A stretch of DNA of 64,000 nucleotides from an uncultured Candidatus Saccharibacteria bacterium (GCA_964440975.1 CAYYKI010000001.1:2591-66590), one strand, 5' to 3'; shown: positions 40,256-64,000, numbered from the stretch's first letter. The notes: generated from the letters alone by a model not told the origin. A program made the numbers and translations.

Positions 40256-40443
40256 GTTTAACAGGGGTGGGCTTGTTTTGTGCATAACTATCCATCTGTT
40301 GGACTTTGCGGCAAAAATCATGAAAAATCATGTGGAAAAGTAATACAATAGTCAGGTACTATAGGGGTACTAAGTCAGGAGGGTTAGTCACCAAGCCTCA
40401 TACGCAGTGGTGATTGGCAGGGTATAAAACATGGGGTTTCTTT

Positions 40444-41808: not shown

Positions 41809-42165
41809 CTCCCCTACCTTGTTTTATCCACAATTTGACTTAGGCGCTATTTTAGTTCAATACAATAGTATTTTTAACCTAAATGTTTTACAATGTATTG
41901 AAATATTTGCAAGTGGTATAAAATGTGTACAACTGAATGATTTCAGTGAGGAAAACCTGTTCAAACCCCCTACCCTTACCCACAGGACTGTACAAATAAT
42001 CAGCACAAGACGTTTTAATACTCATGTTCTACACAATAGCTATCAACAGCTAGCGACACATATCCACGCCCACTTCACGGCTCTACTCGATAGCGTTTCA
42101 CGGCTTTACACACTATCCACAGTGCCTATTACTACTACTAATTATATAAAGAGAAGGGATTAAGG
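41809..42165 (+). promoter_or_regulatory. dnaA-dnaN intergenic oriC candidate with DnaA boxes and AT-rich unwinding element
   Basis: TTATCCACA at 41824-41832, CTATCCACA at 42113-42121, ATATCCACG at ~42060. A strongly AT-rich stretch at ~41840-41960 is a DUE candidate. Confidence 0.6.
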
Positions 42166-43266: not shown

Positions 43267-43321
43267 AACCGGTGCTCGGGTACCCATAGTGTCTAAGCTA
43301 TGGGTGGTGGATGTGTATTGC

Positions 43322-43927: not shown

Positions 43928-43978
43928 AAAACTCCTTTCTCACCACTATACACTGAACGCAAATGCTATCATAGGACA

Positions 43979-47877: not shown

Positions 47878-50800
47878 TTGGACACCCCGCTAGGATTCGA
47901 GGACCCTTAACCGACACGTGAATATGATTGGCATGGTCTCTGAGTGTCCCTGAGCCATAGCTATGTGGCTCGCCCTGTTTAAGGTTAGATGTGCCCGGGG
48001 GTGGATTGGAGTAAATCAACTCGTTAATGTTGAGCGCAGCACGGTTGTTATACAGATACGGCATAAGCTGCGGCGCAACAGACTCGTTACCGATATCAAT
48101 AGCATATCCTCCGTAATGGTTTGAGGTGACCTTTGTTTGTCGTGTGCAGGGATTGTGTCCTGTTTGGATAACTGACGGCTCAAGGGTAACTTTAGCCTGC
48201 TCTAGCATGGCTACTATCAGCTGAACCAAACCATCCTTAGCCACGCCATTTTGGATATCAACGGTTGGCCTATTGGTCTGCGGTTTCCAGCCAGGATTGT
48301 TGAAAATACGGTTTACCAATTGAGCCCTCTCTCCTGCAGGTAGTGTGCCGCCGGGAGTTGGGCCGGTTTCTCCAGTAATTGCCTGGGCGACAACGTCATT
48401 GACGATTAGCTGGGCAAGAATGGTATAGCAGTTGGCTCCTGGGTGGACACCCGCAGCCTCTGTAATACATGCTGACCTGTTAATGCGGCCGTCATCAAAG
48501 TAGGCCTTAAGATCAATTATCTTAAAGTTCTTAGCGATAGCCTGCAGCTTAAGAATGTTGTTATAGGTATCATACTTTGCCTGGCCAGCTCCGCCAGAAT
48601 AGATATTTACAAAATATATTGAGATATTTGGGTTTGCCGCGCGCGCTTTATCCACTGCCTCGACAATTTTTGCACCATAACCGTCTGGCGTCTCCAGTGC
48701 ATTAGTACCGAGCGCAATAACGAGTGTACCTGCTCGAGCAATCTCGGCAGTGTGTGCGTCGATTTGTTGAACGCCCCAAGTCAGGGCCTGGCCACCAACA
48801 GCATTAATGGTTGATGTCCAGCCGGCGGCTTGGAATTTATCGGTAATTTTTACATTGTTATATCCAACAGTAAGTGAATCCCCAATCATATAAACCGACT
48901 TATTCACCGCAGCGGGGCTAGGTGTTGGGGCTATCGGCTCGTCATCTGATGTGTCGCTCAGATCACCAGTAATATTGTCAGAGATTGAGGTGCTGAGGTC
49001 TAGGTCCATTACATATACACGCATACGATTCTTTTCCTCGCTATTGTCCTTGCATTCGGTGCGTTCACCAAAATCACCCGTATCGGTAGAGCTATTATAT
49101 TCAACATCTACCGGGTCAATACAGCTCTTTTTGAATTTATCAAACTCACTATCGGGCACTGGCTTGCCGGCTTCGTCTACGTAGTTCTGGTCCATCATCC
49201 AGCGTTCATTTTCGCCAGGATCTATAGTCTCGGTAACGTTATCTGGTAGGCCCATTATCGGGTTTCCAAAGGCATCGTGGGCAATTTCGTCGGGGTCTTC
49301 TGCAGCAAAGGCCTTATTGGTGGTTACATCGAGTACTGATCCGAACATGGCAGGTATGCCGGCAAAACTCATGCTCCCAATTGCTCCAACGTTCGCAAGT
49401 TGACTATATCCAGAAATCAAGCTAGTTGAGGCCAGTGAAGTGGGATTGCCGAGGCTAATGTAGCGTTCAAACAGACTTTGCTTGGCGAGTTCGGTGCGGC
49501 GGGTTTCGTCCACCTCTTGTTGCAGCGCAAATACTTGGCGATTTTTAAGCGGTTTCATGCCCATACTATGTCCACGCATTTGCGACATGGCTCCCGCTCC
49601 CGATACTAAGGCTGCTGCCAGGTTGTCACCACTTTCGTCACCAGTTATGACGGCCCCTGCCAAGGTTCGGGCCAAGATTGGAAGTAGCACGGCTTTTGCG
49701 ATTTCTAGGGTTGCTGAAATAGCACCTGCGCTTGCTGCACTGGCTGCAACTGCTGTCGCGGTAAGTGTTCCTCCGGTAGCAATACCGCCTCCAATCCTGA
49801 CGACGACTAACTCGGTTGCGCTGGTTGCGATTTGGAAGATTGGATTTCCAGCCACCTTACAAATACCTTTAGTTGGCAGATAATGATCTGCGGCATCCAG
49901 GAACGATCCAAGGTCGCCACCGATTTTTCCATCAACCGAATATCGATTACGCTCCCTGCCAACTACTCCCGGGTTCTTTCGTTTGTTGCTCACATAATTC
50001 CAGGAGCCCGAACTATAGAATGATTTGCCTGTCGACTTGTTTAGAGTGTGGGCCAGGGCCATAAAGCCCGCCATGTCCTGACCGTCGATATCACCATCTT
50101 TAACTGAATCAGCCATAACAAATATAGCCGTAGCAAATTTCGCTAGCTGCATTGCGCGCATCACCCGGCTCGCACCACGAACTGCTTGGGCAAAGGCATA
50201 GGCCTGACAGCTATAGTCGGCAACGGCTGCAAAGCCTCCAATTGCGCCTTTAGCTGCACCTTCTGCACCCTCTTTTACGGTCTTGCCGGCAATATCTGCA
50301 GCTTCACTTTCAATCCGCTCTAAGGACTCTTCACCAACATCCCCCGCAATGCGCCCGGCTGGATCAGCATCAACTTGCTCTGCGATTTCATCCGCAAGCT
50401 TGTTCGCATCATCTAATTCACTAGCAGCCTGGTCGATGTCTGCATCGGCTCGCTCGCGTTCTGGGTCTGGCGATTCTGGGTCATCTGGCCCCGGATCTGT
50501 CTTGGCCTCCCCTTTGCCTTTAGCGGTAACATCATAGCCCGGGATCAATCCCATAAGCGCACCGCGCATCTTAGCTTTAAATTTTTCCCTAAAGTTAAAT
50601 TTGCGTCCTAGTTTTTCACGTAGCTCCAACTCTTTCCGCTCGAGCCAGTCAACTACCCGATTGTCCCTGATCCAGTTTTTGCGGATTAAACCATATCGCT
50701 TGAATACAGCTCGCGCTTTACGTCCGCGCCAAAAAGCACTCCTCCCAGAGTGCCGTTCTGCGATTGCCTCTTTGATCGCTGAGCGTCGTTTCCAGATTGA

Positions 50801-51529
50801 TTCAAACTGATCTGCTGTATTGATACGGGTACCATCTGGCCCTATCAGCTCAGAGAGTGTTCCTCGATTTGTGTTCATCTTAAAGTCGTAGCCATTTGCG
50901 CGCATATCGGCAACAAACTTATCTGACTGGATGTTTTTATAAATTGAAGTTAACTTACCACGTGACTTATACCCATCAAATTCCCCCTCGTGGAAGAAAA
51001 ACCCTCTCGAAAACACCTTACCTGACCGTGTCGTTACTACTTGGGACTGTATGCCCCCGTATTCGCGAAGCATTATTTCTTTAATATGTACCAGCTCAAA
51101 AGCCGGCATAAAGATTGATCCGGCGATAGTTAGGCCAAGGGCAGCAAGCGAACCAAACCCGGCAATCATGAGGGCGCGTTTTCGGTTTCTTAGGGTGGTT
51201 CCTAGGCCACCGCCCTTCTTTTTACGCCCAAGTAGCCGTTTTTTCCCGTCATCCTTTTTATCAAAGTCACCTTCTTTATAAAGGAGGTTCGGGTCACGCT
51301 CTTCCTCGTCCTTTTTATCCTTTTTGCCCTTTTTCGGGCCGGAGCCGTCGGTTTCTTTAGCAGCTAACTCATCGTGGGCATCGCTTTGTTCTTCGTCGCT
51401 GTCGGCATAGTAGCCAGAATCTCCTTGTTCTAGCAGGGCATTTGCTTCGTCGTCATCCATGCCTCCAGAATCTTGGTTGGCGATTGGTCGTGTTTCTTCT
51501 CGTTCTTTATCGTATACGTCATTTGGCAT
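47870..51529 (-). CDS. giant membrane-anchored multi-domain cell-wall hydrolase candidate (1219 aa): SGNH/GDSL hydrolase plus LAS (M15-like) metallopeptidase domains
   Basis: Charged N-terminal tail, one TM helix (ALMIAGFGSLAALGLTIAGSIF), and an Ala/Gly-rich central region. MIGDSLTVGYNN is a GDSL-like motif. C-terminal SNHYGGYAIDIG ... DHANHIHVSV is the LAS-family HxxxxxxD ... HxH zinc site. Confidence 0.55.
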   Translation of the reverse strand: MPNDVYDKEREETRPIANQDSGGMDDDEANALLEQGDSGYYADSDEEQSDAHDELAAKETDGSGPKKGKKDKKDEEERDPNLLYKEGDFDKKDDGKKRLLGRKKKGGGLGTTLRNRKRALMIAGFGSLAALGLTIAGSIFMPAFELVHIKEIMLREYGGIQSQVVTTRSGKVFSRGFFFHEGEFDGYKSRGKLTSIYKNIQSDKFVADMRANGYDFKMNTNRGTLSELIGPDGTRINTADQFESIWKRRSAIKEAIAERHSGRSAFWRGRKARAVFKRYGLIRKNWIRDNRVVDWLERKELELREKLGRKFNFREKFKAKMRGALMGLIPGYDVTAKGKGEAKTDPGPDDPESPDPERERADADIDQAASELDDANKLADEIAEQVDADPAGRIAGDVGEESLERIESEAADIAGKTVKEGAEGAAKGAIGGFAAVADYSCQAYAFAQAVRGASRVMRAMQLAKFATAIFVMADSVKDGDIDGQDMAGFMALAHTLNKSTGKSFYSSGSWNYVSNKRKNPGVVGRERNRYSVDGKIGGDLGSFLDAADHYLPTKGICKVAGNPIFQIATSATELVVVRIGGGIATGGTLTATAVAASAASAGAISATLEIAKAVLLPILARTLAGAVITGDESGDNLAAALVSGAGAMSQMRGHSMGMKPLKNRQVFALQQEVDETRRTELAKQSLFERYISLGNPTSLASTSLISGYSQLANVGAIGSMSFAGIPAMFGSVLDVTTNKAFAAEDPDEIAHDAFGNPIMGLPDNVTETIDPGENERWMMDQNYVDEAGKPVPDSEFDKFKKSCIDPVDVEYNSSTDTGDFGERTECKDNSEEKNRMRVYVMDLDLSTSISDNITGDLSDTSDDEPIAPTPSPAAVNKSVYMIGDSLTVGYNNVKITDKFQAAGWTSTINAVGGQALTWGVQQIDAHTAEIARAGTLVIALGTNALETPDGYGAKIVEAVDKARAANPNISIYFVNIYSGGAGQAKYDTYNNILKLQAIAKNFKIIDLKAYFDDGRINRSACITEAAGVHPGANCYTILAQLIVNDVVAQAITGETGPTPGGTLPAGERAQLVNRIFNNPGWKPQTNRPTVDIQNGVAKDGLVQLIVAMLEQAKVTLEPSVIQTGHNPCTRQTKVTSNHYGGYAIDIGNESVAPQLMPYLYNNRAALNINELIYSNPPPGTSNLKQGEPHSYGSGTLRDHANHIHVSVKGPRILAGCPND

Positions 51530-51531: not shown

Positions 51532-53472
51532 CTATTGCATAGGCCCGTTAGGTTGCGTATTTTGCGGCCCGGGAGCGGGTGCTGACTCCAACGGTTCGTC
51601 TAGGTAGTCCTGGTCTTCTTCGGCGGTGGCTCGCTCCTGCTGCTGTTGCTGTAGCTGCGCGGGGTTTGTGGTGATAAGACTGGCTTCTGTGGGGCTTGGA
51701 GTGATTTGGATATGAACGTGATTCTGGCCAGCAAAGAACAAGCCCTGCCCTACCGGGAACTGACTCAGTCGCTTTCGTTCTTCACTGGTGAGCTTGAACG
51801 TGTCTGCCAGTACGTCTACGGCACTCGTGGATTGCTTGAGGAGAATTTGCATTGAGGCGTTAGCGACAATCGCCCGTCCCATGCGCGACCCCATAAAGTC
51901 TTCAACATCCTGCGTGATGGTCGTTAACCCAAGGTAGTATTTACGGCAACGCTTAGCAATGCTAAAGAGGAAGCTAGCTGAATCCTCATACTTCATTAGC
52001 TGCCACGCCTCATCAACAAGTAGCAGTCGTTTTTTCTTATCGGATTTAGTGCGATTCCAGATGTAGTTGAGCACAATATACATGGCAACTGGGCGGAGTT
52101 CGTCCTCGAGATCACGAATATTAAACACCACCAGCGCATTGTTAATGTCAACATTTGATTGCTGAGAGAAAATACCCGCAAACGTACCACTCGTATATTT
52201 GCGCAGTCGTTGGGCTAATTGTGGACCGGTGCCACCCATATGAAGCAGCGTATCGTATAGGTCGTTGATGGTTGGGGGCGGCGATTTGTGTGTCAACGGG
52301 TCGGTTGTGATCCCGGCTTTGGCATAGGTGTCGATGAGGGCTTGGTCGAGGTCGGCTTCCTCAACAGGATTAAGCGCTGGCGCGAACTGCCCGGCACCCT
52401 CGCCGGCCATTTGTGCTTGCGCCCCACCCATCATCAAGCGTAATAGCCCATGCAATGTAATGAGATTAGACCGCAAGGCGTTGTCCCCGTCGTCGGTATC
52501 GATGACCTGTGGCAAATCAAACGGATTAATGCGTGTTTGCGAATTAAGACTCAGGCGAATGTACGAACCACCGACTGCTTCACACATGCGTTGGTATTCA
52601 TTCTCCGGGTCAATAATCATCACCTCGGTGCCAAGCATCATGCTGCGGAGCGCCTCTAATTTAACCGTGAACGACTTACCGGCGCCTGCCTTTGCAAATA
52701 CCACTGAGTTAGCGTTCTCTAACGTAAAGCGGTCAAAGATCACCAGTCCCGAGTTGTGCATATTGATGCCATACAAAATACCATTCTCTTGGCTCAAATC
52801 GGCCGAGGTAAAAGGAAAGCTAGTGCTAATTGCACCCGTGTTCATGTTGCGCCTAATTTGCAGCTGATCCATAAATTGCGGGACGATGGAGTTGAATCCT
52901 TGTTCCATTTGAGCGGTTGCTGCTTTGCTATAGACGAGCTGCTGGCCAAGAATTGACTCGATTTTATGATGAATGAAATCGAGTTCTTCCAGGCTGCTCG
53001 CATATACATTCATATACAAGCCAAAGCGGAAGAACCGCTCTTCACCTACTTGGAGCTTATCTCGGAGCTCTTCGGCGTCGAGAATGGCAGCTTGCTTTCC
53101 TGGATCACGGACGCGTCCCTTCTCGTTATCAATCTGGATCCCTGCCTCTAGTTGAGAGACTTTTTTGCGCAAATTATCTAGCACCACCTGGCTCTCCACC
53201 GGATAGATATAGATAGAGATGTTCATTTCTTCATCTATGTTGATGATGGGGCTCAGCCAGCCGGTAAATATTTGACGCGGATATCCGTACACATAAAACG
53301 TGCGTGCGTAGCGGGTGCCAAGTCGGAAGTAGCCAGACTGATACTCCAAGCTGCTCGGAGCAATAAAATCGCGGAGCGCCGTTACACCCTTTTGGAACGC
53401 CTGCTCAACCTCTTGCTGTTCGCGAAGACGCTGTTCCTCTGCTATTTGAATTGGATCTTTCTTCTTTGCCAT
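51532..53472 (-). CDS. VirB4/TrbE/CagE-family type IV secretion ATPase
   Basis: N-terminal VirB4 region (DFIAPSSLEY...YFRLGTRYARTFYVYGYPRQIFTGWL), Walker A KAGAGKSF, Walker B LLLVDEAWQL. 646 aa. Confidence 0.85.
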   Translation of the reverse strand: MAKKKDPIQIAEEQRLREQQEVEQAFQKGVTALRDFIAPSSLEYQSGYFRLGTRYARTFYVYGYPRQIFTGWLSPIINIDEEMNISIYIYPVESQVVLDNLRKKVSQLEAGIQIDNEKGRVRDPGKQAAILDAEELRDKLQVGEERFFRFGLYMNVYASSLEELDFIHHKIESILGQQLVYSKAATAQMEQGFNSIVPQFMDQLQIRRNMNTGAISTSFPFTSADLSQENGILYGINMHNSGLVIFDRFTLENANSVVFAKAGAGKSFTVKLEALRSMMLGTEVMIIDPENEYQRMCEAVGGSYIRLSLNSQTRINPFDLPQVIDTDDGDNALRSNLITLHGLLRLMMGGAQAQMAGEGAGQFAPALNPVEEADLDQALIDTYAKAGITTDPLTHKSPPPTINDLYDTLLHMGGTGPQLAQRLRKYTSGTFAGIFSQQSNVDINNALVVFNIRDLEDELRPVAMYIVLNYIWNRTKSDKKKRLLLVDEAWQLMKYEDSASFLFSIAKRCRKYYLGLTTITQDVEDFMGSRMGRAIVANASMQILLKQSTSAVDVLADTFKLTSEERKRLSQFPVGQGLFFAGQNHVHIQITPSPTEASLITTNPAQLQQQQQERATAEEDQDYLDEPLESAPAPGPQNTQPNGPMQ

Positions 53473-54497
53473 TACATTGCCAACGTATTATCTAGATTAG
53501 GTTGCGAAGCTTCACCTTGTCCTTTGGTAACTACTGGCGCGGTGAGATCATCGAAGTTTTGGATCTGCTGACGGGTGGCTGTATCTGGATTGTAAACATC
53601 GTAATATAACTCTATAAGCTCCTGGGTATCGAGCGGCAGGGCCTGGATTCCCATTTGGGTGAGGCTGTTAAGCACTGCCTGAACCTGGTTGCGCAATTCT
53701 GTTTTTGCCTTTTCAAGCGTTGCCTCATCAATAACCACGGTCTCTTGCTTTTTATTGAAGCCAAAGATGTTATCGAAAAAGCTTTTACCCTTTTGGACTG
53801 TCTGGGCGGTTGTGTTCGGTGGTGTATACGGAATGACCATGTAAAACTTCTTGTCCATGATATTGGTTTGCTGGGTCAATACGGCCATAAACTCTATGTA
53901 GTCTTCCATCAAAAGTGCGAGCAGCATATTGTCGTGCTCGAGTCGGATTTTATTGAGGCGTTCCAGGTATGGGCGCATGTCAACTTTAGTGCTTTTGATA
54001 AATATCTGCACCGGAAAATAGAGCGAGTTCAAAAAGCTCTGATAACTAAACTCTACCGCCTCTCGTTCACCCTGGCTCATGAGGTCAAAGTTGATCGTCT
54101 TACACATAATAACCGACCGAAACGTTCCGTCGTTCATGATGACGACCCCGTCACGAATTTCGCTTATCTTGAGCGTATTTTGGGTACTGTTCGGGTTTGT
54201 CTTGGCCGGTGGCGTCTGACCGAGTGGCTTGCCGTTCTGGTCGACTTGGCCAGCTTGCACCTGACCTGGTACAGCTGGTGTCCCCACTGGCCCACCAGTG
54301 GGTACACCGGGCGTCATAGAGGCATCGGGAATCGCCTGCTGCGCCTGCATCATTGGAGTGACCGCATATTGCGCAACATGCGCCTGCTGATCGTTGGGCG
54401 TTGCTTGTGGGGGTGGAGGCGTGGTTGGCACTCCCTGGTACCCAGGGGGAGCTTGACCGCCGGCCGGTGGTTGGAATTGGTTTTGTTGTGGATCCAT
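53472..54497 (-). CDS. T4SS-associated hypothetical protein with Pro/Gln-rich disordered N-terminus
   Basis: 341 aa, no TM helix. Its stop overlaps the VirB4-like start, indicating translational coupling. Confidence 0.4.
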   Translation of the reverse strand: MDPQQNQFQPPAGGQAPPGYQGVPTTPPPPQATPNDQQAHVAQYAVTPMMQAQQAIPDASMTPGVPTGGPVGTPAVPGQVQAGQVDQNGKPLGQTPPAKTNPNSTQNTLKISEIRDGVVIMNDGTFRSVIMCKTINFDLMSQGEREAVEFSYQSFLNSLYFPVQIFIKSTKVDMRPYLERLNKIRLEHDNMLLALLMEDYIEFMAVLTQQTNIMDKKFYMVIPYTPPNTTAQTVQKGKSFFDNIFGFNKKQETVVIDEATLEKAKTELRNQVQAVLNSLTQMGIQALPLDTQELIELYYDVYNPDTATRQQIQNFDDLTAPVVTKGQGEASQPNLDNTLAM

Positions 54498-54550: not shown

Positions 54551-55591
54551 CTAATGTAGTTTGATGACGACTTCGTCACCGTCACCACTGGCCACCCTAT
54601 CAGCTTCGCGCGCTATTACATCTAAGTTTAAGTCATCACGCTGCGATAACTCAAGTTTAGCAGATTCAGGGAGCGAAACGGTAGTGGCTTTATCGTCTTT
54701 GGCGGGAGTACCCCTATGGCTTTTGCTTGGATCGAGTACGTGCTGGCGCATCGACGAGGGGTATGGGTCGTAATGTGGTGCCGCACCTCCTGCGTTAATA
54801 AACGGCATGGTACTACCATTGTCGACTGTCGTTGTAGGAGTGGTTGGCGGAGCCTGTGTTGGGGTGATGACCGATGGCTGAGTGGCGCTTGATTGATACG
54901 GTGCGGCCTGATTATTCCAGGCGGTCACCGGTTGTCCGGCTTGGGCTGATTGCATCTGGGTAAGGGCGGCATCACGAACACTGCTGGTGGCTTTGCTGGC
55001 CAATTCGTCCATGTGATGGGCTAAGTAGCTAGCGTTAGGGTCTAATATATCGTCTGCTGCCGTTATGTCGCTATCTGGAACCATTTGCGGGAGCGCTGTG
55101 GCGGGCACTAAACGGTCGGATGGGCCGCTGGAAGGAAATAAATCATTCGACGAATCATTCACGTAGGCATTCTTTGTTGCCCATCCGCGGCTATCGATGG
55201 TCGTGGCTAGTATCTCCAGTCGAGAACGGACTTCCCTTTGATTGAGTCCATTGGAATATTGGTGTTCAATTTTTTTCGGAACCGTAATGCGTACCAGCTC
55301 TTCCATGCCGGCCTGATCCCACACTCGTCGCCGGGGCTTGAGCAGGAAACGCAACCTCGCGCCAAGATACACATCCGTGGGTTGATCGCGCTGAAACGGT
55401 GCGGCCAGGTAGCCAAACAAGGCGATGCCGGGCAAGAAAGGAATAACCAACAGCGGCTGTGCCTTACCCGCTAAAAACGCCAAATAACACAGCAGTATAG
55501 TAATAATTGCAAAAATAAACTGCTTGAGGGTCAACGGCCCTAAGAGCTTATCTTCGGCCTCGACATCTTGCGGTACTTTATACGTCGACAT
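54551..55591 (-). CDS. T4SS-associated membrane protein, possible VirB3-like N-terminal domain with C-terminal extension
   Basis: N-terminal ~100 aa with two closely spaced TM helices (FIFAIITILLCYLAFLAG / LLVIPFLPGIALFGYLAAPF). A small hairpin membrane gene just upstream of the VirB4 region is typical of VirB3/PrgI/ConD. Assignment by topology and position only. Confidence 0.35.
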   Translation of the reverse strand: MSTYKVPQDVEAEDKLLGPLTLKQFIFAIITILLCYLAFLAGKAQPLLVIPFLPGIALFGYLAAPFQRDQPTDVYLGARLRFLLKPRRRVWDQAGMEELVRITVPKKIEHQYSNGLNQREVRSRLEILATTIDSRGWATKNAYVNDSSNDLFPSSGPSDRLVPATALPQMVPDSDITAADDILDPNASYLAHHMDELASKATSSVRDAALTQMQSAQAGQPVTAWNNQAAPYQSSATQPSVITPTQAPPTTPTTTVDNGSTMPFINAGGAAPHYDPYPSSMRQHVLDPSKSHRGTPAKDDKATTVSLPESAKLELSQRDDLNLDVIAREADRVASGDGDEVVIKLH

Positions 55592-55634: not shown

Positions 55635-57179
55635 TTATATTTGGCCGCGGCGTTGCCAGCGGTTGCGACTTGCTTTGCGAGCTGAGTATGTTTCGGCGAC
55701 GGTATCCATCGGGTGAAGGCGGTTGCCTCTTTGGTTGCCGGTACGCAGGGCGTCTTTAATGGCATGACGCACTCCATTGCGCTGGAACTCCTTGCCTGAC
55801 CGAACAACGGTGACCAGGCTGTCTTTAAGCTGTGCAAAGCGGTCACGATAGTCACGCTCGTCGAGGCCAACTTTCATGCGTGGACCCTTGGGGCTTACTT
55901 TTACACGTAGGCCAAAGCCACTAAACGCTTCATCGTATCGTATCTTAGCTTGGTCCATAAGGGCTGCCCGGTCCTTCTTGTTTGGGTTCGCCTCGATAGC
56001 TTCCATGAGCCGCTTAAAATCCAGTTCAATGTCGAGCATTTGTGATTCAAGGTCGACAGCGCGTAGCACCACACGTTCGATATGGACGCCATTTTGTTGT
56101 TCAATCGGGGGTTTTTCTTCAGGGCGTGGAACTAATTTTTCTCGATCTTTACCCCTTGGGCGTAAGTAGTTAAGGTCGTATTGTAGTTGCTCTACTTCTG
56201 CTTTACGGGCAGCTTGCAAAGCTTTGATTGCTGCAACTTCTGCCGATATCTGATCAGATAGAAGCTGATGCTGAATTTCTTTTTCCGCATCACTTAGCGT
56301 GTCGTCGGCGTTTATTGCACGTTTGGCTGCAGATGCCTTTGGGCCATCAAATCCGTACGTAAAAGGACTCTCGTCAACTGGGGGTATTTGCAAATTTGCG
56401 TCGTAACGGGCGTCTAATGCCTTGTTGGCCTCAACCCACTGCTGGGTGCTGAGTTTTTGCAGTGCTTCACGTGCTACTGAGTCGTATCCTAAAAATAGCT
56501 GTTGTGAGCGGATGGATGCTCGGAATAGCCACTTGTAGCGGTTCTGGCTTGCTTCTAGATCAGCCGAGCTAAGATCTGCCCAATCCTGCCGTTCAATAGC
56601 CATTTGCTGATTAGTGGCCTCGTATACCGCGCCAAATACAAACCGGTTAACTTCGGCAAATACCAGTAGCTGTCGATCGGTAAACTGGCGAGTATCGATT
56701 AAGGTTGGATCTTCTAGTTCGGCGTCTGCTCCTGTAAGTTGTCCGGCAGCAGCCATGCGCTCTATGACATCTCGGGTTAAGCCAAAGATTCGGGCGTGGT
56801 GGCGCATCTCCAGGTCTTTGATAAAAGGAATCTGTCCTTCTACGTTGGCAGCGTCAAGATCGGCATCACCTGCTTCGTTAAACATTTGGGATGCAGCATT
56901 CCACTTACCCTCAGCTCGCAAAGCGGTTGCTTTAGCTCGTAGCTGACTGGCTTTTGAGCGGTATTCCTCCGCCTGAATAGGCATAAAGTCGGAGTTTGCA
57001 TCCTCGTACTGCAGGGTTGTAGCGGTGTGGTACACAACTTCATCAAACCGGTTCTGTAGGGTTGGGTCGGCGTCAAAATGATCACCGATCATTTCGGTGT
57101 AGGCATCTTGGTGTGTTGCTAACTCTTCGGGCTTAATTGCCCTCGAGTAGCGATCTTCTTGTAGCGAAGAAGTTTCCAT
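55635..57179 (-). CDS. T4SS-associated hypothetical protein (largely alpha-helical, 514 aa)
   Basis: No TM helices or catalytic motifs recognised. Sits between the VirB6-like and VirB3-like genes. Confidence 0.4.
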   Translation of the reverse strand: METSSLQEDRYSRAIKPEELATHQDAYTEMIGDHFDADPTLQNRFDEVVYHTATTLQYEDANSDFMPIQAEEYRSKASQLRAKATALRAEGKWNAASQMFNEAGDADLDAANVEGQIPFIKDLEMRHHARIFGLTRDVIERMAAAGQLTGADAELEDPTLIDTRQFTDRQLLVFAEVNRFVFGAVYEATNQQMAIERQDWADLSSADLEASQNRYKWLFRASIRSQQLFLGYDSVAREALQKLSTQQWVEANKALDARYDANLQIPPVDESPFTYGFDGPKASAAKRAINADDTLSDAEKEIQHQLLSDQISAEVAAIKALQAARKAEVEQLQYDLNYLRPRGKDREKLVPRPEEKPPIEQQNGVHIERVVLRAVDLESQMLDIELDFKRLMEAIEANPNKKDRAALMDQAKIRYDEAFSGFGLRVKVSPKGPRMKVGLDERDYRDRFAQLKDSLVTVVRSGKEFQRNGVRHAIKDALRTGNQRGNRLHPMDTVAETYSARKASRNRWQRRGQI

Positions 57180-57234: not shown

Positions 57235-60200
57235 CTATGGCGCTGAATCGTCAGGGCTTGATGAGTTAGCTCCTTCGTCGATCATAGCAATCTCTCCTGC
57301 GGTATATCTTGGATTGACTCCGCTGTAATCAGAAGGTGTCGGCTCCGGGTGTTGCTCGCTCGCATGCGCTGGGTCGTGCTCAATAGCAATTGCAGTACCC
57401 TCCTGCGCGACCTTTTGATTACCAATATTGCCTTGAGGTAAGTTTGTACTGAGCAACGATCTAACCCGTTTAGCATTATCAACGGTCTCTGCGTCAACTG
57501 CATCGCTGCCCTCTAGGTTGAGTACTGCATTTGAAGATTCGGCCAGGTTTTTAACTGAATTACCCTTAAGCCGTCCTGCTTGCAGTGCATCTACCGACTT
57601 GCCACCCTCAACATGGGCGCGGTGCTTGTTTCGCTCCAGTCGTTCGTCTGAAGCGGCTGAAGGCCCACGTAAATGGGCTCGTGCGTCGTCAATGTCACTC
57701 ATACTGACGCCTGATAGCTCGTTGCGATACGCTTCTTTCTGTTTGGCCTTGTTGAAGCCCCATAACGATTCTTGGGTCTCAAAGTTGTCGCCGGCAATAC
57801 GGGCAATAGTTTCGGATACGTCTCGAGCGTCCGTAAAGGCGGTGCCGTTCATCACCATCTGTTTAAAGGCTGCTTCGCGGTTATTGAAGCCGAGGGCGCC
57901 AGCGGCACGGCGGGCGGTAACCTTGCCGTCACGCTCTGCTTTGGCGAGGGCGGCTTGACCTGCTGCGCTCGCCTCCCAATCGGCCCTACTTTCGACGCCA
58001 CTTTCGGCAAAGGCTTTGTCGGCATAGAAATCTTTCATGCCCACTTCGGCAGCACGTTGGTTGCGATACGTTGCGGCGCGGATGAGGTCGTCGCGTCGTG
58101 CCGAGGCTACCCAACGTGGGTCGCGGAGTCTTTCTTCTTGGGCTGCAGAGCGTCGGCTGGCATATACCTCACGACCACGTGCTCCGAGGCCAAAGCGGCC
58201 ACCAACACCCGCGCCAAGCCCACCACTGACACGGTTGAAACCGCGCCCGAACGGGTTGCTATCCTTGAAGCGGTTACCGGTAGCATTAGCTGCGCGCCTC
58301 GCGGCATTTTGTTCGGCAGTGCGTTTGCGGCGAGTATCCAAGATTCCCCTTGAGCGGTCGTTGACCATGCCGCCAACGGTAGAGATTAGCCCGCCCGCAA
58401 ACTTAAAGGTAAACGGAATCATCATGTAAGGCGCAAAATACGCAGCAATTGCAGCAAGTTTAATAAAGGTATTGCCGCCACCATCAGTTTGGGCAAGCCA
58501 TGGGGCAACATTCCAGTTTGACCAGATGTTGCCAATACTACCTCCGCTCGCAAAACCAGACATAATCAGCGAACTGGCAATGCGACCGGATACGAGCAGC
58601 ATAACGATGAGTGGATACATGAGCAGAGACTTGGTAAAGAAGTTCCACCAGGCTTTAAAGACTCCCTGAGTATTAGGCAGAATCCAGGCAATAAAGGCTA
58701 TAGGCGCGCCGACGATACAAGCAACAATCACCAAGTAACGCACGAGCACCACAAAGAACGCGGCCAGCACTGCAAAACTTACGGCTATAAGGACGGTGCC
58801 GAGTGAGCTCCAGAGCCCAATACCTGATGCAATAGCAGCAGCTCCACCACCAACGAATGTTAGTAGAGAGTCTGCTCCCCCTATGTCTACGTTTTGTAGC
58901 ACTCCCGATTTTGCAAACGGAGCTAAAATCAGATCCTTAGTTGTGTCACCGAGGGCCTGGATCAAGCCAACCAACCAGGCGGCAACAAACCATGATAACT
59001 GCACAACAATAGCAGCGATAACTAACCTTGGGAGTGCTTTTTTGACGGTATACGCACTAAGCGACTCAATCGAAATAATCTGCGACAAAATGATAATGAG
59101 CGTAATGATAATGAGCAGCACGTTAGCTATCGATCGGAACGACGCCCAAGAAACATACAACCCGCGATCCTTGCTATCCGTTTGAGTAGCAGCATTTGCT
59201 GAAATATCAAATCGTAGCAATAGCACCAGCTGATCTCCAAACCAGCCAACCAAGTCATCAAGTATTTTGATGCCTGCACAGAGGATCCATGAGAGCGTGT
59301 AGCCACTGGCTTCGCAGGGGTCGACATCCTGGTTTGCGATGCCGCTGGGTGCGATCTCCAGTTCCGATGTCCCGCCATTTTTCAGGTCCTCTGCTTCAGC
59401 GTCGGCATAGGCTTGCGCCAACGATTTGTTTTTGAGTTCTTCGAGGAGGTCGCCGCAACTCACTTGAACGTTGTCCTCGGTCTTATCAGCGCCGGCATTG
59501 TACACTCCCCAGCCGACGTTGGCTTCTTCTTCGTCTTGCAGTACGCCGTTCACCTCTACTGGCTTACCGTCTTTGACAATCCATATTTTCTCGTGTCTAT
59601 TTGTAGAGCCTGCAATATCCTCGTCTTTCATGTCGGTGCTAAAGCCACAGGCACTATTTCGTAGTGCTGAGTAGTATAGCCACCATCTCGCACCAGGTGA
59701 GAGGTTGTCTATGCCGCCATCGCCAGGTTCGGCTTTTTCTGCTTTACTCTCTACATAAGCCTTGAAAATTGCTTCGAAAGCCCGCGACGAAATATCTCTG
59801 GTACCGCTCCCTGGTGAATATAGGATGTCTATGAGTTCTTTTGTGTCTTTTATACCCATGTAAGGTAGGTATTTGTCCATTTCTTCGACATTAGTGCACA
59901 CAATCTCACCATCATCTTTTTCTACATGCTCTCCAATATATGCCGTGCGCGATCCGTCAAATATATCAATGAGTTGATTTCTACGTAATTCGCTGCCGGT
60001 TCCACTCTGCGGTTCTAATTTTGTGCCAATGTGTAGACCAGGAGATGTATCAGGCCCACCTTGTATACAATTTCGAAAAATTCCCCAGAACACCGAATGT
60101 GTCTTAGCCTCGTTCTGTAGTTTTTTGGCATTTTCATTTTTTGCGTAGGCTTGCTCTACTGGGTGGACGGTTTGCACAATGTTAAACGCAAACACAGCCA

Positions 60201-60237
60201 GGACAACCCCAAGAGCAATTCGCATACGGTTTTTCAT
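57235..60237 (-). CDS. VirB6/TrbL-like polytopic channel protein candidate with large N-terminal ectodomain and ~400-aa Arg/Ala/Gly-rich C-terminal tail
   Basis: Signal/TM at the N-terminus (MKNRMRIALGVVLAVFAF). A cluster of about 6-8 TM helices in the middle (residues ~380-640). Low-complexity C-terminal tail. First gene of the operon. Confidence 0.45.
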   Translation of the reverse strand: MKNRMRIALGVVLAVFAFNIVQTVHPVEQAYAKNENAKKLQNEAKTHSVFWGIFRNCIQGGPDTSPGLHIGTKLEPQSGTGSELRRNQLIDIFDGSRTAYIGEHVEKDDGEIVCTNVEEMDKYLPYMGIKDTKELIDILYSPGSGTRDISSRAFEAIFKAYVESKAEKAEPGDGGIDNLSPGARWWLYYSALRNSACGFSTDMKDEDIAGSTNRHEKIWIVKDGKPVEVNGVLQDEEEANVGWGVYNAGADKTEDNVQVSCGDLLEELKNKSLAQAYADAEAEDLKNGGTSELEIAPSGIANQDVDPCEASGYTLSWILCAGIKILDDLVGWFGDQLVLLLRFDISANAATQTDSKDRGLYVSWASFRSIANVLLIIITLIIILSQIISIESLSAYTVKKALPRLVIAAIVVQLSWFVAAWLVGLIQALGDTTKDLILAPFAKSGVLQNVDIGGADSLLTFVGGGAAAIASGIGLWSSLGTVLIAVSFAVLAAFFVVLVRYLVIVACIVGAPIAFIAWILPNTQGVFKAWWNFFTKSLLMYPLIVMLLVSGRIASSLIMSGFASGGSIGNIWSNWNVAPWLAQTDGGGNTFIKLAAIAAYFAPYMMIPFTFKFAGGLISTVGGMVNDRSRGILDTRRKRTAEQNAARRAANATGNRFKDSNPFGRGFNRVSGGLGAGVGGRFGLGARGREVYASRRSAAQEERLRDPRWVASARRDDLIRAATYRNQRAAEVGMKDFYADKAFAESGVESRADWEASAAGQAALAKAERDGKVTARRAAGALGFNNREAAFKQMVMNGTAFTDARDVSETIARIAGDNFETQESLWGFNKAKQKEAYRNELSGVSMSDIDDARAHLRGPSAASDERLERNKHRAHVEGGKSVDALQAGRLKGNSVKNLAESSNAVLNLEGSDAVDAETVDNAKRVRSLLSTNLPQGNIGNQKVAQEGTAIAIEHDPAHASEQHPEPTPSDYSGVNPRYTAGEIAMIDEGANSSSPDDSAP

Positions 60238-60374
60238 ATTCACGGTTATTATAGGCCTTTGGCGATACGGCCACAAGTATTTGATAGCCATTTCTGGTCA
60301 GCTCAATTCGCTGAGGCGTTTACAGCTTACGGCAGATATGATTGAATGAACATATTCGGTATACTAATAAAAAG

Positions 60375-61124
60375 ATGAAACACAACTCTATTCTAAGTTT
60401 AGCTCACCAAGCCACTCGTGTGGCTGTGCTGCTGTTGGCACTTGCTGCACTGCTAGGGCAAGCTACCCCTGCGCGCGCCCAAAGTCCCGACTCCATCGAC
60501 CGTGATGTCTCGCCCGATTTTGCAGCAACGTGTTATCAGCAGAAAGGCACCTTTAAGTATGACAACCCAGATACTCCCACCGACGAGAATATGACGCTTA
60601 AAAAATATGAAGAGATTAACTGTGCAGATTTGCAGTCAGTTGACGGAGGTAAAGATTACCAAGCAGCAACGGCTTGCTACGAGCTCGTCACAACAAGTGA
60701 AGGTGGTCGCCAAGCAAAAACCGTGCTGGTTGCAAATTGCAACGAAATCCGTTTTTTGCGCGCCCTGGAGCAAAACAATGGCGCCACCGAAGAAGATCCT
60801 GATGGCGGCGGCGGTGGAGGCTCAGAAACCACACCAAAATCACCCCGTAACTTTGGCAACTTGGAGTCAAATGACTTACCCGTGCAGGACCAGCCGTTTT
60901 TTAAGGACTACCTCATCCCCATTGTTAATATTCTTTCGGGTGGTGTTGTAGCGCTGGCAGCGGTCTTTATGGTTGTGGCTGGAGTGCAATATTCGACCGG
61001 TCGCGACAACCCGCAAATGGTTGCTGCGGCTAAGGCGCGTATCGTTAATGTACTGATTGGCTTGCTCGCCTACCTATTCATCTATGGCTTCTTGCAGTGG
61101 ATTATTCCAGGGGGCGCACTGTAA
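60375..61124 (+). CDS. VirB2/TrbC-like pilin paralog 1 (large N-terminal domain)
   Basis: Signal peptide, ~150-aa head, then the conserved C-terminal two-helix hairpin ...GVVALAAVFMVVAGVQYSTGRDNPQMVAAAKARIVNVLIGLLAYLF. Confidence 0.5.
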   Translation: MKHNSILSLAHQATRVAVLLLALAALLGQATPARAQSPDSIDRDVSPDFAATCYQQKGTFKYDNPDTPTDENMTLKKYEEINCADLQSVDGGKDYQAATACYELVTTSEGGRQAKTVLVANCNEIRFLRALEQNNGATEEDPDGGGGGGSETTPKSPRNFGNLESNDLPVQDQPFFKDYLIPIVNILSGGVVALAAVFMVVAGVQYSTGRDNPQMVAAAKARIVNVLIGLLAYLFIYGFLQWIIPGGAL

Positions 61125-61525
61125 TGTTTAGCTATGTAGCAGTGACCGTGAGCCAGTGGGGCTTTCAGCTAGCACAACTTGCCGGAACCTGCGATAAAAA
61201 CCGCACCTTTTTGGGGCTCAAGCCGTGGTATCACTACGCAAACTTTGACGCCAGCTGCGCCTACCTGCCAGCTAATGGCAGCGGGTTTACCGGTGCTGAT
61301 GTTTGGCCGATATTAGCGGTTGTATTCGAAGATTTGTTAGTGATTGCCGCGTATGTGGCGATAGCTTATGTGCTGGTGGGCTCTTTTCAGATGATGACCG
61401 CACAGGGCGAGCCAGATAAGTTCAAGTCTGCACGTGGTACGGTAATCAATGCCCTGATCGGCTTGGTGATTGCAGTAATTGGCGGCCGATTGGTCGGTTT
61501 CCTCTTTAACGGAGTCTTTAAATGA
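61124..61525 (+). CDS. VirB2/TrbC-like pilin paralog 2
   Basis: Start overlaps the previous stop (TAATG). C-terminal hairpin LVIAAYVAIAYVLVGSFQMMTAQGEPDKFKSARGTVINALIGLVIAVIGG. Confidence 0.5.
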   Translation: MFSYVAVTVSQWGFQLAQLAGTCDKNRTFLGLKPWYHYANFDASCAYLPANGSGFTGADVWPILAVVFEDLLVIAAYVAIAYVLVGSFQMMTAQGEPDKFKSARGTVINALIGLVIAVIGGRLVGFLFNGVFK

Positions 61526-61824
61526 TTAGTCAGCTATATTTGTTCTTTGGCCAAACGTGCAACAACCCGTATGGCATTGTTATTCCCTGCCGCGATACTT
61601 CAAGCAATCCAATCGAAACAGCCATTAAGCTGGCGATTGCTGTTGCAGCTGGAGTAAGTATCTTATTTGTCACCATCGGCGCCTTTCGGTACGTCATAAG
61701 TGCCGGAGATCCAGGTAATATTTCGAAAGCCAAAAACACCATCATTTATGCGCTCGTTGGACTTGTTGTTTCAGTGACAGTGTATGGACTGGTAACCTTT
61801 GTAATTGATCGGGCGGCTGGATAA
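61522..61824 (+). CDS. VirB2/TrbC-like pilin paralog 3
   Basis: ATGA overlap with the previous gene. IAVAAGVSILFVTIGAFRYVISAGDPGNISKAKNTIIYALVGLVVSVTVYG. Confidence 0.55.
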   Translation: MISQLYLFFGQTCNNPYGIVIPCRDTSSNPIETAIKLAIAVAAGVSILFVTIGAFRYVISAGDPGNISKAKNTIIYALVGLVVSVTVYGLVTFVIDRAAG

Positions 61825-61825
61825 T

Positions 61826-62260
61826 ATGAAGCGACGATTAGTACAACTCGCGTTGGCAATTGTAGCTGTACTTTCGATGGCCTCTGTTTCGCCGGTGCAC
61901 GTAGATGCCCTTGACTGTTCAAAAGACCCTGATCGGGGATCGGCTGCCTGTAATCCAGAAAACCAGAACAACCCCTGCGTTAACCCCGAAGTTGCCAAGA
62001 GCGCATTGTGCGAAAGTACGCGCAACAACCAGGATCCTATTAATGGTCCCGACGGCATACTGACCCGCGCGGTTGAATTGATGTCATATTTAGTTGGTAT
62101 CGCCTCTATAGTTGTTGTAATCGTTGGTGCCATTAGGTTCACCACTTCTTCCGGCGACGCCAATGGTATTTCGGCAGCAAAAAAGATGATAGTTTACGCA
62201 TTAATCGGTATTGTAGTTGCTATATTCGCCCAAGCTCTGGTAATTTTGGTATTGAAATGA
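61826..62260 (+). CDS. VirB2/TrbC-like pilin paralog 4 (Cys-rich variable head)
   Basis: Signal peptide MKRRLVQLALAIVAVLSMASVSPVHVDA, a head with 4 Cys, and hairpin LVGIASIVVVIVGAIRFTTSSGDANGISAAKKMIVYALIGIVVAIFAQALV. Confidence 0.55.
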   Translation: MKRRLVQLALAIVAVLSMASVSPVHVDALDCSKDPDRGSAACNPENQNNPCVNPEVAKSALCESTRNNQDPINGPDGILTRAVELMSYLVGIASIVVVIVGAIRFTTSSGDANGISAAKKMIVYALIGIVVAIFAQALVILVLK

Positions 62261-62655
62261 TGAAAAAACTCAGTCTACTCGTTCTCCCCATTGCTGCCAT
62301 GTTTAGTTTGTTGGCTGCGCCTGTAATTGCCACAGCGCAATCTAAAACTGCCGCGCAAATCGCCTGCGAATCAGCTGGTGGTAGCTGGAGTGGCAGCGGT
62401 TGTGTAAAAAGCAATCCGGCCGAAAAAGGTGTAGACGACACGGTGCGCGCCGCCGTCAGCATCTTGTCGTACATCGCTGGTGTCGCTTCTATAGTTATGG
62501 TTATCGTTGGTGGAATCAAGTATGTCGTATCAAGCGGTGATTCTAATGCGGTCGGTAGCGCCAAGAATACCATCACCTATGCCTTGGTCGGTTTAGTGAT
62601 CGCTATTATGGCACAAGCTATGGTGCGATTTGTGTTTACGAAGTCAACGAGTTAG
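62257..62655 (+). CDS. VirB2/TrbC-like pilin paralog 5
   Basis: ATGA overlap. Signal peptide, 2-Cys head (ACESAGGSWSGSGC), hairpin IAGVASIVMVIVGGIKYVVSSGDSNAVGSAKNTITYALVGLVIAIMAQAMVRFV. Confidence 0.6.
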   Translation: MMKKLSLLVLPIAAMFSLLAAPVIATAQSKTAAQIACESAGGSWSGSGCVKSNPAEKGVDDTVRAAVSILSYIAGVASIVMVIVGGIKYVVSSGDSNAVGSAKNTITYALVGLVIAIMAQAMVRFVFTKSTS

Positions 62656-62722
62656 CCTTGCATAGCTGGGGTCAAACTGCTAGCATACAAAAGATAAGAT
62701 AGTTACTAAACAGGAAAACAAC

Positions 62723-63136
62723 ATGATACAACGCATAAAGTTATTAATCGTTAGCTTGGGTGCTGTTTTTGCCGTAGCGGCACCAGCAGTAGCAGTTTCG
62801 GCGCAGACTGGCGTTACTGAACCAAACGTCGCGTGTGGAATTGAACTTAAGGGTACCAATTGTGGTACAAGTGTTAATCCAGACGAAGGTGAGAACCGCG
62901 TTGTTAACATTATCAAAACTATCATCAACGTTCTCTCGTTGATTGTTGGTGCGATTTGTATCATCATGATTGTCTTCGGCGGCTTTAAGTACATGACATC
63001 AGGTGGTGAGTCGGCCGGTGTGAGTGGTGCAAAGAATACTATTCTGTACGCTGTTGTCGGCTTGGTAGTCGTATTGCTAGCGCAGGCGATTGTCCGCTTT
63101 GTGTTCACCCGAACAACCACCAACCCTACTCCGTAA
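62723..63136 (+). CDS. VirB2/TrbC-like pilin paralog 6
   Basis: Signal peptide, 2-Cys head (VACGIELKGTNCGTS), hairpin LIVGAICIIMIVFGGFKYMTSGGESAGVSGAKNTILYAVVGLVVVLLAQAIVRFV. Confidence 0.6.
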   Translation: MIQRIKLLIVSLGAVFAVAAPAVAVSAQTGVTEPNVACGIELKGTNCGTSVNPDEGENRVVNIIKTIINVLSLIVGAICIIMIVFGGFKYMTSGGESAGVSGAKNTILYAVVGLVVVLLAQAIVRFVFTRTTTNPTP

Positions 63137-63156
63137 GTACCGCACGAACGAAAACT

Positions 63157-63186
63157 ACAGCCGGCCCGCAGCCGGCTGTTTTTATT
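63157..63186 (+). terminator. rho-independent terminator after pilin paralog 6
   Basis: Perfect 9-bp stem ACAGCCGGC / GCCGGCTGT with a 5-nt loop, followed by TTTTTATT. Confidence 0.5.
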
Positions 63187-63221
63187 ACCCCCGTTGCTAA
63201 CCAGTTGCTACCAGTGGTAAA

Positions 63222-63677
63222 ATGCCAAGTATGAGACACCGCATCAACCTACTGGTCCTAGCTTTATTAACTCCGCTGATTTCCGTTGTCGCTGCCCTAT
63301 CGGTTCAGCCGCAAATGGTATCTGCGCAAGATTCTAGTGTTACTCTGCCCGACAATAGCACCAGCGTGACCCAAGGCCCGGTTGCCTGTGGTATTGAGCT
63401 TACTACCGGTACTAACTGTGCGGTTGATGGCACAAAGGGCGAAAGTAAGGTACTTGGGATCATCAAGCAGGTTATAAATGTTACTTCCCTGCTGGTAGGC
63501 GCTATTTGTGTGATTATGATTATATTTGGTGGCTTTAGGTATATGGTTTCAGGGGGCGACTCTTCTGGAGTATCAAACGCCAAGAACACCATTCTATACG
63601 CCGTTGTTGGTTTGATCATCGTGTTGCTTGCGCAAGCACTGGTTCGCTTCGTGTTCTCGCGTGCGACGGCAGCCTAG
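63222..63677 (+). CDS. VirB2/TrbC-like pilin paralog 7
   Basis: Signal peptide, 2-Cys head (VACGIELTTGTNCAVDG), hairpin LLVGAICVIMIIFGGFRYMVSGGDSSGVSNAKNTILYAVVGLIIVLLAQALVRFV; closest sibling of paralog 6. Confidence 0.6.
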   Translation: MPSMRHRINLLVLALLTPLISVVAALSVQPQMVSAQDSSVTLPDNSTSVTQGPVACGIELTTGTNCAVDGTKGESKVLGIIKQVINVTSLLVGAICVIMIIFGGFRYMVSGGDSSGVSNAKNTILYAVVGLIIVLLAQALVRFVFSRATAA

Positions 63678-63803
63678 CAAGAGACGATAGCAACATACGA
63701 ACTCATACTGCTTACTTTTGTGGCAGACGGGCGCCATGGGGTGCTAAAAAATGCGCACATAATGCTCTTTAAACGTTTTGTGGAGCTCGGCGGTTGCTAA
63801 TAC

Positions 63804-64000
63804 CTAGAGTACTTGAATCTTTTTGACGGTTTCTTGGACTTTCTTAAAGCCAATAGTGAGGACACCGTCTTTGAGTGTAGCTTCGATTTCGTCTTCTTTA
63901 ACCTGGACGGGTAACGTGATGCTTCGGGAGAATTCACCCCAGTAACATTCCTGAACGTAGTAGTTAACAGCTTCTGGGTCATCGCCACTATTGAGTGTTC
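63804..64000 (-). CDS. Hsp20/alpha-crystallin family small heat-shock protein, C-terminal part (gene runs off window end)
   Basis: Minus-strand frame ending at stop 63804-63806 reads ...YVQECYWGEFSRSITLPVQVKEDEIEATLKDGVLTIGFKKVQETVKKIQVL*, a typical Hsp20 C-terminal pattern. The ORF-track entry 63797-63988 is an overlapping wrong frame. Confidence 0.6.
   Translation of the reverse strand, partial: TLNSGDDPEAVNYYVQECYWGEFSRSITLPVQVKEDEIEATLKDGVLTIGFKKVQETVKKIQVL

Follow-up and report, generated by a model that had tools for sequence, protein, structure and literature searches.

The 64,000-nucleotide (nt) stretch considered here, referred to as the window (GCA_964440975.1 CAYYKI010000001.1:2591-66590, from an uncultured Candidatus Saccharibacteria bacterium), carries on its plus strand, at positions 60375-63677, a tandem array of seven paralogous genes whose products match PF18895 (T4SS_pilin), a pilin family of type IV secretion systems (T4SS). 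A preliminary description made from the sequence alone had placed seven such open reading frames (ORFs) here, and all of them are present. Directly upstream on the minus strand, and divergently from the array, runs an operon for the T4SS itself, and the array is an ordinary seven-gene member of the T4SS pilin arrays already known from Patescibacteria.

The first gene of the array (paralog 1, 60375-61124) encodes 249 amino acids (aa) and matches PF18895 with E = 1.6e-6 and 28.5 bits; an upstream TTG at 60342 is offered by the ORF listing, and 60375 is taken as the likeliest start. Its product comprises a Sec-type signal peptide ending at ARA↓Q, a head of about 140 aa with four cysteines, a Gly6 linker and a membrane hairpin that is followed at the C-terminus by a conserved IPGG motif. 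Since the five homologs found match the hairpin alone, the head is lineage-specific. An AlphaFold2 (AF2) prediction made with these five homologs reached a predicted local distance difference test (pLDDT) score of 55.8, and its head model was of low confidence and too poor for a fold search. Paralog 2 (61124-61525, 133 aa) scores 24.9 bits against PF18895 (E = 2e-5), below the cut-off of 26.6 bits; its N-terminus is weakly hydrophobic and uncharged, with no segment over the Kyte-Doolittle threshold, its head holds two cysteines, and collinear orthologs are present in two of the closest related arrays (L001 and L002, see below). Paralog 3 (61522-61824, 100 aa; PF18895 E = 1e-9) is without a signal peptide and has a 26-aa head with one cysteine pair. 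Paralog 4 (61826-62260, 144 aa; PF18895 E = 7e-7, TrbC E = 0.003) carries a signal peptide ending at VDA↓L and four cysteines in the head, and paralog 5 (62257-62655, 132 aa; PF18895 E = 1.7e-9) a signal peptide ending at ATA↓Q and two head cysteines. Paralog 6 (62723-63136, 137 aa; PF18895 E = 1.9e-12, TrbC E = 6.4e-6, NF045849 E = 3.4e-9) has a signal peptide ending at VSA↓Q, a two-cysteine head loop and the highest likeness to TrbC among the seven. Its homologs are named "pilin [Candidatus Saccharimonadales bacterium]" wherever the source gives a name, and as the best-conserved paralog it is 81% identical overall, and 88% identical in the hairpin, to its ortholog in L001, the closest array sampled for this uncultured Saccharimonadales lineage. 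Paralog 7 (63222-63677, 151 aa; PF18895 E = 4.7e-12, TrbC E = 1.7e-4) shares the VSA↓Q site and the two-cysteine head loop; having arisen by recent duplication of type 6, it forms with that gene the sole recent pair in the array, with 74% identity in the hairpin and 44% in the head.

Translational coupling, which had been read from TAATG and ATGA junctions, is indeed seen at three boundaries: the ATG of gene 2 overlaps the stop of gene 1 as TAATG, and ATGA overlaps join genes 2 and 3 as well as genes 4 and 5. One nt lies between genes 3 and 4, and the gaps ahead of genes 6 and 7 measure 67 nt and 85 nt, respectively. On the plus strand 3' of gene 6, at 63157-63179, stands a GC hairpin resembling an intrinsic terminator, with 9-10 stem pairs, seven of them G-C, and a T run (TTTTTATT). 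A promoter-like site on the same strand (63194-63223) lies just ahead of gene 7, which is probably its own transcription unit.

As first noticed, all seven products share a C-terminal module made of a hydrophobic helix, the motif G-x-[KRQ]-[YFM]...S/A-G-D/E...A-K/R-x-x-I-x-x-A-L-x-G-L and a second hydrophobic helix, which in the alignment is clearest in genes 3-7 and looser, indeed degenerate, in genes 1 and 2. Because all seven match PF18895 and because a hidden Markov model of the hairpin, run against the ORFs of the 64 kb window, picks out these seven and none other, the array is not a product of chance. The PF18895 matches have E-values from 2e-5 to 2e-12, with six of the seven above the gathering score of 26.6 bits (28.5-47.5 bits), and at the level of the wider family 125 of 125 members match. 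The TrbC/VirB2 model PF04956, with a gathering score of 27.9 bits, is matched at E <= 1e-3 by 113 of the 125 family members, with values down to 1e-9; for genes 2 and 3 the Pfam scan gave no match to it. These similarities support homology to TrbC/VirB2 at the level of the superfamily, in keeping with the identity proposed at the outset.

A further relationship leads to the Mycoplasma integrative and conjugative elements (ICEs), whose Mbov_0395 family pilin-like conjugal transfer protein (NF045849) is matched at E <= 1e-3 by all seven window paralogs and by all 125 family members. The matches run over nearly the full length of the 80-residue model, with E-values from 4e-4 to 3e-9 in the window and a best value of 2.8e-11 in the family, at scores of 20-36 bits that fall short of the equivalog cut-off of 40 bits. 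They suggest that VirB2-like hairpin proteins occur in at least one monoderm system of the MPF_FATA type, a class from which such proteins have been said to be absent (PMC12102498). A literature search on the Mycoplasma ICE protein yielded only a 2025 review, in which the pilin is unmentioned and VirB3-like features are given to CDS13 and CDS15. Fold searches also turned up hits of the DHp (histidine-kinase) type, and ATP-synthase c-subunit-like and histidine-kinase DHp-like fold hits are likewise listed in Wang 2023 Table S2 (PMC10633639); both folds were treated as generic hairpin resemblance.

Signal peptides were called heuristically, from hydropathy and the -3/-1 rule. By these calls a classical signal peptide with a basic n-region, a hydrophobic core and an AxA↓Q-like site is present in genes 1, 4, 5, 6 and 7, so the topology of signal peptide plus hairpin that had been ascribed to the whole array stands for these five, whereas the leader of gene 2 is weak and gene 3 has none; the two helices are found in all seven. 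If both helices span the membrane, the topology of the five leader-bearing proteins forces the head and the C-terminus outside and the short basic loop inside. The AF2 prediction for gene 6, built from 125 sequences, has a pLDDT of 76 overall and of 86-93 in the hairpin, with the signal helix at residues 2-23, a head of low confidence and long helices at 53-92 and 97-132. On re-measurement the mature heads span about 26-140 aa (about 20-150 aa had been given), and cysteines, which had been attributed to five heads in numbers of two to four, in fact occur in all seven, each with two or four. Identity among the window paralogs averages 25% over the full length (range 12-56%), 33% in the hairpins and 15% in the heads, which bears out the proposed diversification of the heads.

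For comparison, 80 related loci, mostly from metagenome-assembled genomes (MAGs) of Saccharibacteria/Saccharimonadales, were found in species-representative genomes by a contig scan with the pilin alignment. Among the 75 complete arrays six genes are the rule (45 arrays), followed by seven (21), eight (4), nine (2) and ten (1), and two arrays have four to five. Gene order is nearly always type 1, type 2, mostly type 3 and then a variable number of types 4-7, and it is only at this 3' end that copy number varies between lineages. The closest arrays, L001 with seven genes and L002 and L003 with eight, follow the window's paralog order one for one, and types 1-3, and largely types 4-5 too, have collinear orthologs in other genera. 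Judged from sequence, the genes at positions 1-3 belong to ortholog classes that are deep and keep their place across Saccharimonadia. Class 1 proteins have a median length of 196 aa and 2-12 head cysteines; class 3, surveyed in 74 arrays, has a median of 99 aa with 26 residues ahead of the hairpin and is mostly leaderless, 19% of its members having an N-terminal hydrophobic segment; the other classes measure about 137-140 aa and have a leader and a two-cysteine head. The class 3 gene of L002 (about 8373-8681, plus strand; 102 aa, leaderless, GTG start) escaped gene calling in the source assembly, as did that of L003, and array sizes published from called genes may undercount this class.

The heads obey a parity rule: among 478 heads in 74 related loci (among L001-L084), 410 have an even number of cysteines, 6 an odd number and 62 none. 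An even number points to disulfide pairs and thus to heads outside the cytoplasm, so that the rule is a strong sequence signature of heads that would be disulfide-bonded and external. Systematic extracellular disulfide bonding is thereby implied in organisms with very reduced genomes. The heads also change faster than the hairpins. Between the window genes and their L001 orthologs the non-synonymous divergence (dN) ranges from 0.21 to 0.81 for the heads and from 0.06 to 0.23 for the hairpins, and heads outpace hairpins 1.7-5.5-fold at non-synonymous sites. Of the comparison of dN/dS between heads and hairpins suggested in the preliminary description, the higher dN in heads stands, whereas the ratio itself is barred by synonymous sites that are saturated even in the closest arrays (pS > 0.75 in nearly all segments), and the comparison rests on dN only; the row for gene 3 of L002 is left out of the dN table. 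Two arrays of the Saccharimonadia type, with seven and ten genes, were met on contigs of MAGs labelled Candidatus Babeliales (L066, DATIIZ010000036.1) and Burkholderiaceae (L072, JAYVTZ010000012.1), respectively. Both are likely binning contamination; the Babeliales (TM6) array could be genuine, as an array is mentioned in a TM6 amoeba symbiont (McLean et al., bioRxiv 258137).

The T4SS operon on the minus strand begins next to the array with a polytopic, VirB6/TrbL-like membrane protein of 1018 aa (57235-60291), a T4SS channel component. It has no Pfam match itself, and a scan of the genome contigs with it brought no confirmed relative; its syntenic orthologs in L002 and L003 match PF19590 (TrbL_3), and SEML1_0013 of Southlakia epibionticum is annotated as TrbL/VirB6-like (Wang 2023 Table S2, PMC10633639). 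It is followed by a 514-aa protein of unassigned family (55635-57179), with syntenic counterparts of 516 aa in L001 and 664 aa in L002, and by a PrgI/VirB3-like protein of 346 aa (54551-55591; PF12666 PrgI, E = 1e-10). Next come a TraC-like protein of 341 aa (53472-54497), which matches PF11130 weakly and whose orthologs match PF26593 (TraC-like), and a VirB4-type ATPase of 646 aa (51532-53472) with matches to PF19044 (E = 1.6e-26), AAA_10, DUF87 and, below threshold, CagE_TrbE_VirB. These two ORFs abut at 53472, and the TraC-like protein is taken for the N-terminal portion of a VirB4 split in two; since the split recurs in L001-L003 (332 + 644 aa; 317+ aa), it is a conserved arrangement and not a frameshift. 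The same operon continues with a 1219-aa protein that has a C-terminal GDSL lipase/acylhydrolase domain (47870-51529), an M23 peptidase of 476 aa (46447-47877) and, next to the latter, another protein of unassigned family (461 aa, 45059-46444). The GDSL and M23 proteins would act on the envelope, and a wall-remodelling function of the VirB1 type is likely; they are candidates for enzymes that remodel the envelope or the host surface, or for effectors. Pfam and NCBIfam searches with the 514-aa and 461-aa proteins were empty, and in the Pfam scan none of the cluster ORFs showed a relaxase or type IV coupling protein (T4CP) domain, or a VirB5/TrbJ domain.

Beyond the operon, dnaA, dnaN and recF span 40414-45046, with dnaA at 40414-41808, and some 18.6 kb separate dnaA from the start of the array downstream. 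Two groups of DnaA boxes, at 40226-40339 and 41824-42121, flank dnaA and comprise three perfect TTATCCACA sites and four sites with one mismatch; yidC (38012-38929) lies beyond dnaA, and dnaN and recF are on its other side. Given the DnaA boxes and these neighbours, the region flanking dnaA is probably oriC, some 3 kb from where the T4SS operon ends, and the presence of recF, dnaN, dnaA and DnaA boxes nearby places the locus in the chromosome, next to oriC. On the far side of the array, the 3' end of an hsp20 (alpha-crystallin) gene runs off the window on the minus strand (63803-64000; the translation ends in GEFSRSITLPVQVKEDEIEATLKDGVLTIGFKK before the stop). HSP20 marks a conserved downstream boundary of the array, being found in the same place in L001-L004 and, as SEML1_0020, in S. 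epibionticum.

Elsewhere, the window holds on the minus strand a 1380-aa ORF (1090-5232) in which a SNF2-type helicase (SNF2-rel_dom and Helicase_C) is fused to a class I SAM methyltransferase domain, and two adjacent large ORFs of 693 and 785 aa (20646-25145) with no Pfam match. On the plus strand, a 552-aa protein (16895-18553) has a CHAP (peptidoglycan amidase/peptidase) domain. A local GC peak of 0.546 at 10001-12000, against about 0.45 on either side, contains long ORFs that overlap on opposite strands (11192-12100, plus; 11255-12049, minus).

Taken together, the array very probably encodes VirB2-superfamily (PF18895) pilins of a chromosomal, oriC-proximal T4SS of the monoderm type in a Saccharimonadales bacterium, orthologous to SEML1_0014-0019 of S. 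epibionticum and most likely forming a heteromeric structure with specialised subunits. The S. epibionticum genes are six plus-strand genes of 312-558 nt (Wang 2023 Table S1, PMC10633639), with the VirB6-like SEML1_0013 ahead of them and hsp20 (SEML1_0020) after them, both on the minus strand, and in transposon sequencing each of the six was classed first as growth defect and then as essential (Wang 2023, PMC10633639).

According to this interpretation, each protein would insert into the cytoplasmic membrane so that head and C-terminus face outwards and the short basic S-G-G-D...A-K-N loop faces inwards, and the VirB4/VirB6 machine would then extract the subunits and stack them into a tubular filament or a short conduit. 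In such a structure the wall would consist of the hairpin helices, with the loop turned to the lumen and the disulfide-stabilised heads displayed on the surface facing the host bacterium. Extraction, polymerisation, a lumen-lining loop and exposed termini are modelled on the VirB2/TraA pilins. The paralog classes would be non-redundant subunits of a single heteromeric structure, which is the most likely arrangement because the classes are ancient, keep their order, differ in architecture and are each required in S. epibionticum. Types 6/7 may represent the major subunit, since they are best conserved and have promoter-like and terminator-like signals of their own, and type 1 with its large variable head and the leaderless type 3 may have specialised roles, as tip, base or initiator. 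Contact with the host would be tuned at the 3' end of the array, through duplications confined to particular lineages and through faster-evolving heads.

A more specific version is possible and held only tentatively: the array would specify one obligate heteropolymer and no repertoire of variants, with class 1, whose large head would be rich in disulfides and evolve fast, as tip or adhesin, leaderless class 3 as initiator or base and classes 6/7 as major subunit, and the family would have descended with the monoderm MPF_FATA machinery instead of being captured from diderms. Descent with this machinery is suggested by the relationship to the Mycoplasma ICE family NF045849, and a co-option of the pilin from diderms had been left open as a possibility (PMC12102498). 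If true, the obligate heteropolymer would be the counterpart, inside a T4SS, of type IV pili with their major and minor pilins.

Several points weigh against the heteromeric pilin interpretation. Every window paralog stays below the gathering score of the TrbC model PF04956, the best being gene 6 with 26.7 bits against 27.9. Genes 2 and 3 are without a clear signal peptide, which renders their topology less certain, and the assignment of major and minor roles is drawn from conservation and transcription signals only. As a transposon that lands in a coupled operon can have polar effects, essentiality gene by gene is not fully proven for SEML1_0014-0018. Finally, we infer filament formation, since a T4SS pilus has not been observed in any Patescibacterium (PMC12857230); in the same 2025 review the idea of a monoderm pilus is termed "intriguing" and unproven, and an extracellular adhesive pilus, as envisaged in the preliminary description, is a hypothesis in the literature too (PMC12857230).

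It is on this last point that the strongest rival builds, namely that the proteins are membrane-embedded parts of the T4SS translocon, in the cytoplasmic membrane or the cell wall, and form no extended filament, comparable to the need for VirB2 in pilus-independent transfer. Monoderm MPF_FATA systems are normally pilus-less (PMC12102498, PMC10633639), no pilus has been reported, and the NF045849 match is to an ICE protein of Mycoplasma, which is wall-less and not known to have a long pilus. Yet the helices of 36-40 residues in the AF2 prediction for gene 6 exceed what a bilayer needs, variable heads with even cysteine numbers would fit disulfide-bonded, surface-exposed parts under diversifying pressure, and a static channel would hardly call for seven paralogs, which leaves this explanation rather unlikely.

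Unlikely, too, and somewhat more so, is the explanation that the paralogs are interchangeable variants of one major pilin, amplified for receptor or antigen diversity as in the Trw system of Bartonella, with different copies used per host. This had been the precedent first invoked, it has also been suggested for the published arrays (PMC12102498), and part of it holds at the 3' end of the array: copy number ranges from 4 to 10 between species, mainly in types 4-7, the heads of the recent duplicates 6/7 have diverged beyond their hairpins, and the excess of non-synonymous change in heads described above would be expected. However, types 1, 2 and 3 are deep ortholog classes in an order fixed across the class, the paralogs are only 12-56% identical, their architectures differ (leaderless type 3, large-headed type 1), and all S. 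epibionticum pilin genes are needed on a single host, which is unexpected under redundancy. As the paralogs are ancient collinear classes, each essential in S. epibionticum, the Trw analogy is the weakest part of the preliminary description. A third explanation, that these are holins, bacteriocins or other small membrane-active peptides unrelated to secretion, a possibility raised in the preliminary description, appears extremely improbable and was rejected: beyond the small two-helix membrane format it can point to a lone Pfam match (Phage_holin_5_2, E = 0.044, gene 1 only), whereas the PHROGs search matched none of the seven paralogs, T4SS pilin models match them all, synteny with VirB6, VirB3 and VirB4 is fixed, and no immunity, ABC-exporter or lysis cassette lies alongside.

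Returning to the favoured reading, a heteromeric structure of VirB2-superfamily pilins, the array can be set beside four kinds of known system. With the TrbC/VirB2 pilins of diderms (Agrobacterium VirB2, RP4 TrbC, F TraA) it shares the leader and a pair of long hydrophobic helices with a short, polar and basic loop between them, a significant similarity in profile searches and the company of VirB4 and VirB6. It differs from them in that its host is a monoderm without an outer-membrane core complex, that seven divergent paralogs take the place of one gene, that the heads have paired cysteines and that two paralog classes are without a classical leader. Signs of cyclisation or acetylation were not met, and no search was aimed at them.

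The trwL genes of the Bartonella Trw system and the virB2 genes of Anaplasma are likewise tandem VirB2-family genes with variable exposed parts, belonging to T4SS that serve host interaction and have lost conjugation. Those, however, are lineage-specific amplifications inside a diderm system, with trwJIH co-amplified in Bartonella, whereas the classes of the present array are ancient, architecturally distinct, collinear across the class and individually required. In a lineage-specific amplification of the Trw type, the copies would resemble one another more than they resemble orthologs elsewhere; in the window array, types 1-3, and largely 4-5, have their collinear orthologs in other genera, and the 6/7 pair alone looks recent. 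The Pfam scan of the cluster ORFs revealed no co-amplified VirB5-like (TrwJ) minor pilin. The Mycoplasma ICE protein of NF045849 is, like the array products, a component of a monoderm T4SS; it is encoded in a mobile element, whereas the array is chromosomal.

The closest precedent is not Trw but the published pilin arrays of Patescibacteria. First noted in 2018 as 4-6 small, VirB2-related proteins with signal peptides beside VirB4 and VirB6 in Saccharibacteria (McLean et al., bioRxiv 258137), these arrays were later catalogued as 441 VirB2 arrays of 2-11 genes in 383 assemblies, with the greatest abundance in Saccharimonadia and Microgenomatia and with a mean within-array identity of 25% and a maximum of 54%; proximity to dnaA was noted and the analogy to Bartonella and Anaplasma drawn (Quinonero-Coronel 2025, PMC12102498). 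The window array shows the sequence features that define this group, with tandem PF18895 genes, virB4, PrgI and VirB6 neighbours, no relaxase or coupling protein in the cluster, proximity to dnaA and oriC and a mean identity of 25%; a need for the array in epibiotic growth is known for S. epibionticum only. With the arrays of S. epibionticum, TM7x and the catalogue it also has in common the arrangement of VirB6 on the minus strand, pilins on the plus strand and hsp20 on the minus strand, and a 5' order of a long gene, one of about 130 aa and one of about 100 aa; the six genes of S. epibionticum compare with seven here through the extra type 6/7 duplicate.

No T4SS before that of Saccharibacteria had been shown to be essential to the cell that carries it, and the pilin array sets it apart from every other monoderm T4SS. 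The question of what the array builds and what cargo it passes bears on the whole epibiotic lifestyle of Patescibacteria; as a typical ortholog, the window array does not itself open that question. What the comparison adds is the deep classes 1-3, the leaderless class 3, the even number of cysteines, the faster heads and the match to the Mycoplasma ICE family. The conserved class structure and the even-cysteine rule are unstated in the published accounts, as far as these were covered, which for supplementary figures was not exhaustive. In cultivable strains, the fixed class order, the leaderless class 3, the even-cysteine rule, the fast heads and the Mycoplasma ICE link may aid the design of experiments.

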